This document shows positions 17,570 to 17,731 of a stretch of 63,499 nt of DNA, one piece after another. The translations under genes and the position numbers were made by a program. The notes under the pieces are model-generated. The model saw nothing but the letters and a program-made list of their open reading frames with translations, ran no database searches and was not told the DNA's origin. Numbering within the stretch: position 1 is the first letter of the stretch; every line of letters begins with the position of its first letter. Source of the DNA: Candidatus Campbellbacteria bacterium (GTDB lineage: Bacteria > Patescibacteriota > Minisyncoccia > Phycocordibacterales > JABAAK01); assembly GCA_028817035.1 (NCBI GenBank), contig JAPPQH010000005.1, forward strand, positions 1 to 63,499. Reading direction: 5' to 3'.

Positions 17570-17731
17570 ACGCGAGGTTGGCGCCTAAAATCAAGCATCA
17601 TACTAACCATGCCATGATGCTCAACAAGGCAGCAGATCACATCCTAATAACGCCTTGGAAAAAGGAGGTGGCGCATAGAGATAGGATGTGAAATCAGGCA
17701 TCAAGGGTGGATACCTGCATCAGCCTCGCGT
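17570..17731 (-). ncRNA. Unassigned multi-hairpin RNA (about 160 nt) with an exposed ACCUCCUUUUUCC loop; strand tentative
   Basis: P1 ACGCGAGG (17570-17577) pairs with CCTCGCGT (17724-17731). 10-bp stem TCACATCCTA/TAGGATGTGA, with an apical 5-bp stem whose closing pair is G-U only in the minus sense. 8-bp stem AGCATCAT/ATGATGCT. No credible ORF. Confidence 0.45.

Follow-up and report, generated by a model that had tools for sequence, protein, structure and literature searches.

A compact, strongly folded element with an exposed anti-SD-like loop beside a tRNA-like gene in a Campbellbacteria genome

The SD-masking sRNAs of Firmicutes act through C-rich loops, as is the case for RsaE/RoxS and for the C-rich hairpin loops of Staphylococcus aureus RNAIII. 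Other RNAs are tied to tRNA processing, and these include 3'ETS-leuZ of E. coli, which is a tRNA-precursor-derived sponge, and MALAT1-mascRNA, in which a tRNA-like module lets RNase P define the end of the RNA. The element described here lies in the genome of a Candidatus Campbellbacteria bacterium obtained from a sponge metagenome (566 kb in 17 contigs, 97% complete), in a window that comprises the whole stretch of 63,499 nucleotides we analysed (contig JAPPQH010000005.1, positions 1–63,499), and it recalls both groups of RNAs in part.

Like RsaE/RoxS and RNAIII, the element has C/U-rich apical loops complementary to GGAGG-type sites, with more than one such loop per RNA, and two of its loops (CACCCUU and ACCUCCUUUUUCCAA) are exposed and C-rich in the manner of RsaE/RoxS. 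It differs from them in that it matches no Rfam model and is not conserved in 311 related genomes, its complementarity is only of a generic SD type, and the ribosome of its host is without an anti-SD sequence. The likeness to 3'ETS-leuZ and MALAT1-mascRNA is one of arrangement, as a structured segment abuts a same-strand cloverleaf in one terminator-delimited unit; in our case, however, this segment is on the 5' side and is much larger, the tRNA-like gene is atypical, and processing is a step that we infer.

Fold, strand and loop of the element

The whole element (17570–17731, minus strand) is predicted to form a closed four-way junction of 162 nt with 52 base pairs in the MFE fold. It is closed by the 8-bp stem P1, in which the 5' arm ACGCGAGG (17724–17731) pairs with CCUCGCGU (17570–17577). 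Inside this, and on the same strand, hairpin 1 (17695–17717) has an 8-bp stem and the 7-nt loop CACCCUU, hairpin 2 (17637–17691) has a perfect 10-bp stem (UCACAUCCUA/UAGGAUGUGA) followed by an internal loop and an apical stem of 5 bp (GCGCC/GGCGU) whose basal pair is G-U in the minus sense, and hairpin 3 (17580–17633) includes the AGCAUCAU/AUGAUGCU stem, extended to 13 bp through G-U pairs, together with a short basal extension and the loop GCAUGGUUAG. The motif CCACC is common to hairpin 1 and the loop region of hairpin 2. With a GC content of 0.49 compared to 0.39 for the genome, the element is present as a single copy, its terminal inverted repeats are the 8 bp of P1, and there is no duplication at its flanks.

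The minus-strand MFE of -66.9 kcal/mol corresponds to a z-score of -6.15, none of 200 dinucleotide shuffles folded as well, and the centroid was the same as the MFE structure, while the plus strand folded less strongly (-59.1 kcal/mol, z -4.8). On this modelling the fold of the element is beyond chance expectation. Six of the 52 pairs in the minus fold are G-U compared to three of the 48 in the plus fold, and this, the orientation of the tRNA cluster and the terminator-like hairpin that follows the tRNA-like gene slightly favour the minus sense. An earlier note made from the sequence had claimed a closed multi-hairpin fold, a region free of any credible ORF, and a weak preference for the tRNA strand based on a G-U closing pair. 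Our analysis bears these out: every stem it listed was recovered in the minus-strand MFE fold (hairpin 1 is an addition to its list), the sole ORF across the region (17311–17691, plus strand) runs antisense through two tRNA genes, and the pair in question is indeed G-U in the minus fold.

The note was also correct in stating that the loop carries the canonical anti-SD CCUCC which the organism's own 16S rRNA has lost. The apical 15-nt loop of hairpin 2 (17655–17669, minus strand) is ACCUCCUUUUUCCAA, with a predicted unpaired probability of 1.0, and when read with the preceding C of the stem it gives CACCUCCUUU, 10 nt identical to the textbook 16S anti-SD tail. In a 145-nt context the CCUCC also has an unpaired probability of 1.0, which is the highest value (tied with one other) among 93 intergenic CCUCC sites, and all other occurrences of CACCUCCUUU in the genome lie antisense to the ribosome-binding site of a gene. 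[quoted passage not shown] This loss fits the published figure of about half of the Parcubacteria being without the anti-SD motif, if the lineage belongs to the Parcubacteria group (PMC9297842).

The likeness to a canonical 16S 3' tail is restricted to these ten consecutive identical bases and to their being predicted as single-stranded, and it should be noted that the copy in the element is enclosed in a hairpin loop and does not form a free 3' end, and that the element otherwise has no 16S similarity. We rejected the possibility of a relic of a 16S 3' end plus spacer tRNA-Ala, as the 10-nt core alone matches and the Rfam SSU models found no match. A separate observation concerns the 16S trailers of relatives, where six of the eight examined (L029 and L031–L035) have a hairpin some 15–45 nt after helix 45. 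The stems vary with pairing retained (UCUCC/GGAGA, CCUCC/GGAGG, UCUCUC/GAGAGA and CCUUC/GAAGG), and the hairpin probably represents a conserved feature of the 16S trailer or of its processing.

The tRNA-like gene and other folding tRNA flanks

On the minus strand, the order of genes is uvrA, uvrC, an ORF of 201 aa, an RNase T-type exonuclease, a pilin-like gene, the element and the tRNA-like gene, after which come a 14-bp hairpin with a U-run, a tRNA-Leu(UAG) with its own -10 box, and a tRNA-Ala(UGC). The pilin-like gene ends in an A/U-rich 12-bp hairpin with a U-rich tail (17838–17877, minus strand) which is a weak terminator candidate. The hairpin after the tRNA-like gene (17420–17467, minus strand; -16.3 kcal/mol) is terminator-like, is followed by UUUUAUUUUU, and would close the element and tRNA-like unit before the tRNA-Leu. 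Since the hairpin and U-run follow the tRNA-like gene and the tRNA-Leu has a -10 box of its own, we regard the element and the tRNA-like gene as delimited from the tRNA-Leu as a separate unit.

The tRNA-like gene (17474–17559, minus strand) is 86 nt long, lies 10 nt downstream of the element, and matches the tRNA model with 48 bits. It is derived from a tRNA-Ala and has an intact acceptor stem with G3:U70, intact D and T arms, all of the tertiary tRNA signatures, and U as the discriminator. In place of the anticodon loop there are 19 nt able to form an extra 5-bp stem, with no usable anticodon, and no deletion of 12 contiguous bases gives a loop with U33. Because the tertiary signatures are kept and the anticodon loop is not, the gene is more likely to be a structural or processing module than a decoder, and it could be an alanine-accepting, non-decoding RNA (a search for a FemAB-type transferase as a possible user of such a non-decoding Ala-tRNA-like RNA found none). 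The T arm and acceptor stem are identical to those of an ordinary tRNA-Ala on an unrelated AT-rich contig (L037), and the 5' half is also nearer to this tRNA-Ala than to that of its own genome. Its 3' end resembles that of the tRNA-Ala 640 bp away, and both genes are complete. No counterpart was found in the family genomes, where the model we built from it matched only ordinary 75-nt tRNA-Ala genes.

Most of the tRNA genes in this genome, and the RNase P RNA gene, have an extended -10 box (TGnTATAAT or TAGTATAAT) ending 7–25 nt before the mature 5' end and no clear -35 box. No extended -10 box was found ahead of the element, in contrast to most tRNA genes. A promoter-like TTGAGC-N16-TATGAT (17624–17597) is found within hairpin 3, along with the locally common TAGTAT motif, and could serve as the start of the tRNA-like transcript. 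ARAGORN identified 38 ordinary tRNA genes in the 17 contigs, with tRNA-Asp and tRNA-Thr(UGU) missing, probably because of assembly gaps (both are present in the relative G003), and the odd loop of the tRNA-like gene holds neither of these anticodons.

Strongly folding non-coding DNA is not peculiar to this locus, as GC-rich non-coding islands adjoin many tRNA genes throughout the genome. In the same window, inserts at 8872–9053, 45395–45594 and 56430–56577, which follow tRNA-Ile, tRNA-His and tRNA-Ser, respectively, have z-scores of -5.3 to -9.1 on both strands and are bounded by duplications of the tRNA 3' end. As these three inserts fold as strongly as the element or more so, extreme fold z-scores are a general trait of tRNA flanks in this genome and the strength of a fold is no proof of function here. 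They resemble the element in being GC-rich against the 39% background, free of ORFs, rich in stable hairpins and located next to a tRNA-type gene. They differ in lying 3' of a tRNA, whereas the element lies 5' of the tRNA-like gene and has no bounding duplicated tRNA end, and the terminal stem makes the element a single compact junction and not a hairpin train. The element is nonetheless most likely of the same broad kind as the strongly folding GC-rich flanks of several other tRNA genes. We also note a promoter-preceded GC-rich segment of 116 nt elsewhere in the window (14270–14385, plus strand; z -6.5 on the plus and -5.1 on the minus strand), which has no Rfam match at gathering thresholds and is not an SRP RNA according to the Rfam models.

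Searches for known families and homologues

A search of both strands with Rfam 15, at the gathering thresholds and at E ≤ 10, found nothing in 17570–17731, and within 17250–17900 only the two flanking tRNA-type genes score. The covariance-model scan proposed by the earlier note therefore gave no known family with another function at this threshold, and with the strong fold this leaves its description of an unassigned structured element on the tRNA strand in place. What had kept open the reading of the element as a housekeeping RNA of known type that has diverged strongly (SRP RNA, 6S RNA, retron msr-msd or T-box) was a seemingly vacant slot, as neither SRP RNA (RF00169, RF01854) nor 6S RNA (RF00013) had a match anywhere in the genome. 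The tmRNA and RNase P RNA are located on other contigs, and these two identities are therefore taken. For SRP RNA, the Ffh M domain and the SRP54-type GTPase (PF02978 and PF00448) are also absent from the genome, and in such a genome no SRP RNA is to be expected; for 6S RNA, the predicted four-way junction contrasts with a rod-like helix with a central bubble. A retron msr-msd or other RT-linked RNA is excluded by there being no reverse transcriptase (PF00078) in the genome, and although the plus strand has a T-box-like word (GGGUGGAUACC), there is no Rfam T-box match and no plus-strand gene downstream. A housekeeping RNA would also be expected to be conserved in relatives, and the element is not. 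We consider this reading to be largely refuted and its chances to be negligible.

The SRP pathway as a whole could not be detected in this genome (no SRP RNA, no Ffh M domain, and no PF00448 and thus neither Ffh nor FtsY), and searches for PF00448 in 11 family, 40 order and 100 phylum genomes gave no more than a few weak and partial matches, which cover fewer than 60 of the 196 profile positions at about 25 bits. The same searches were positive in all 14 of the control genomes. When this genome and the complete G003 genome were scanned for motifs, no ORF was found to combine a P-loop, DTAGR and TKxD, and our literature search found no paper on the absence of the SRP pathway. Such a null result across the phylum may reflect true biology or a weakness of the searches themselves.

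Two classes of mobile DNA were also considered and rejected. A tRNA-gene integration scar does not fit, as the element is 5' rather than 3' of the tRNA-like gene and no tRNA-end repeat bounds it, and nor does a MITE or interspersed palindromic repeat, as the 8-bp terminal inverted repeats are present yet the element is single-copy and without a target-site duplication.

No homologue of the element was found by BLAST in 40 relatives, nor by BLAST or a single-sequence, structure-aware covariance model in 11 family, 150 order and 150 phylum genomes, where the best foreign match of the covariance model (and the sole other match) had an E-value of 0.75. Exact-word scans of metagenome, genome and viral contig collections did not find the element either, and matched nothing but an ordinary tRNA-Ala on an unrelated contig. 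Among 5.8 billion clusters, the relatives closest to the flanking proteins are at most 51% identical, and no relative of the pilin-like protein was found in the same clusters. Synteny traced through the exonuclease gene and tRNA-Ala showed that the neighbourhood is not kept, with the relatives being too distant. DNA of the locus is present in the source sample only, apart from one identical 151-nt piece in a second (low-coverage) sponge run which spans the tRNA-Leu and not the element, and no variants were found within the element. A search for RNA runs containing the locus gave none.

SD sites and the rival explanations

About 13% of the genes in this genome carry strong and correctly spaced SD sites despite the loss of the anti-SD sequence, and among ORFs of at least 60 aa, 80 have GGAGG 5–9 nt before the ATG. 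In most of the remaining genes a TATAAT-like box is found no more than about 22 nt from the start, and this pattern suggests that non-SD genes may have leaderless or short-leader mRNAs. The sequence AGGAGG-N5-9-ATG occurs 4.5-fold over a reversed-pattern control in this genome and 3.0- to 3.6-fold over control in the family members G003, G008 and G010, which have lost the 16S anti-SD and yet have no such element. The complementarity of the loop to ribosome-binding regions noticed earlier is present, and extends over 12 nt for the gene at 727–1641 (11 nt according to the note) and 9 nt for that at 13417. Two sites on contig C17 are likewise perfect complements of the loop, with lengths of 13 and 12 nt, and exact loop complements of 9–13 nt are found at the canonical distance before the ATG of several genes.

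This complementarity is generic. In 74 distinct SD contexts, the mean extension beyond GGAGG was 1.26 to the left and 0.74 to the right for the loop, compared to 1.09 and 0.88 for a B. subtilis-type tail and 0.92 and 0.88 for an E. coli-type tail, and with the loop and textbook tails extending similarly, the SD-led genes fit a generic anti-SD sequence and not the element in particular. In BLAST, a match of 12 nt comes with an E-value of 12, and the target-sense word, which is purine-rich, is common throughout the genome. When the whole G003 genome was crudely scanned for analogous loops with an exposed CCUCC, none was found, and the top candidates were the antisense of ordinary ribosome-binding sites. 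On the predicted fold, the anti-SD-like loop is real and exposed, and it is without demonstrable target specificity.

These results separate the two parts of the earlier interpretation, in which the structured element stands and the SD-masking sRNA finds no support in anything tested. The note itself had named as evidence against masking a loop that is not conserved where SD-led genes are present, and the conservation check found the element and its loop in none of the 311 related genomes, although SD-led genes are enriched in G003, G008 and G010. A trans-acting sRNA masking the purine-rich sites of the minority of SD-led genes through its C/U-rich loops (CCACCUCCUUUUUCC and CCACCC) would be consistent with the complete exposure of the loop, with two of the three loops being C-rich and both having CCACC, with the correctly spaced exact complements, and with the existence of some 80 ORFs with a spaced GGAGG in an organism whose 16S rRNA has no CCUCC. 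Any anti-SD-like sequence would find such matches, however, with flank extensions close to those of textbook tails and with a target word this common, and G003, G008 and G010, with the same anti-SD loss, are similarly SD-enriched without the element or, in the case of G003, any analogous exposed loop. We therefore think that this explanation is improbable, and a more far-reaching version, in which SD recognition would have moved off the ribosome and onto this RNA, made together with the alanine-type tRNA-like module and silencing or delivering SD-led mRNAs in trans through the loop CACCUCCUUU, is very improbable indeed.

The explanation we tentatively prefer, to which we would give somewhat less than an even chance, is that the element is specific to its lineage and is a hairpin-rich insert or the 5' leader of a tRNA-like unit derived from a tRNA-Ala of foreign type, with no shown function. 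A single-copy, GC-enriched insert would lie directly 5' of a degenerate tRNA-like gene, and we infer that it would be transcribed from the minus strand as the 5' leader of this unit, ending at the unit's own terminator-like hairpin, with RNase P cleavage at the 5' end of the tRNA-like part then releasing the element. This accommodates the strong fold of either strand (with the minus strand ahead of the plus strand), the three inserts in the same window and the GC-rich islands beside many tRNA genes, and the uniqueness of the element in the genome and its absence from the relatives and contig collections searched. The tRNA-like gene is equally lineage-restricted and is partly like a foreign tRNA-Ala, the terminator-like hairpin and the tRNA-Leu -10 box mark a separate unit, and the SD complementarity is generic. 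Several features fit less well, as the element is 5' and not 3' of a tRNA-type gene with no duplicated tRNA end, its terminal stem closes a compact junction instead of a hairpin train, the six G-U pairs favour a fold at the RNA level in the tRNA sense, the 10-nt anti-SD identity falls exactly in a fully exposed loop, and there is no extended -10 promoter ahead of it as seen before most tRNA genes.

A functional variant of this arrangement would be a cis-acting leader whose structure governs how a joint precursor is processed, how stable it is or where its 3' end is set, with the tRNA-like part acting as a handle for RNase P, as in MALAT1-mascRNA or the sRNAs derived from bacterial tRNA spacers. 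This suits the 10-nt gap, the shared strand and the single terminator-like hairpin after the pair, as well as a tRNA-like gene that keeps its tertiary signatures and G3:U70 without an anticodon loop, but transcription of the tRNA-like gene could begin at the promoter-like site inside hairpin 3 and so leave out most of the element, our searches found no conservation, and we rate such a leader as distinctly unlikely. The element might instead matter only as DNA, either as a palindrome-rich vestige of some mobile or integrative element with which the tRNA-like gene arrived (in which case the loop would be left over, in antisense, from a ribosome-binding site once present on the plus strand) or as a promoter-bearing spacer. 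Here the long perfect stems and 8-bp terminal inverted repeats, a plus-sense loop (GAAAAAGGAGGUG) which is a word of real ribosome-binding sites elsewhere in the genome, and the presence in this genome of hairpin-rich scars and of a selfish double-hairpin repeat family have to be set against a single copy with no target-site duplication or flanking tRNA-end repeat, a plus strand with no start codon at SD distance, and the location of the genome's only tyrosine recombinase on another contig. We regard this as unlikely, though it deserves some weight.

Returning to the insert or 5' leader that we prefer, the element is indistinguishable from the other strongly folding GC-rich tRNA flanks of the genome, and it is of use chiefly as a warning that in this genome even extreme fold z-scores are no sign of function. 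Should the element prove to work as an RNA, a regulator or adaptor of this type would be a rarity among ultra-small symbiotic bacteria, and would bear on the SD puzzle. That puzzle is a real one and, because relatives without the element share it, is independent of the element: the family has kept strong SD sites, although the tail that would match them is missing from its ribosomes.
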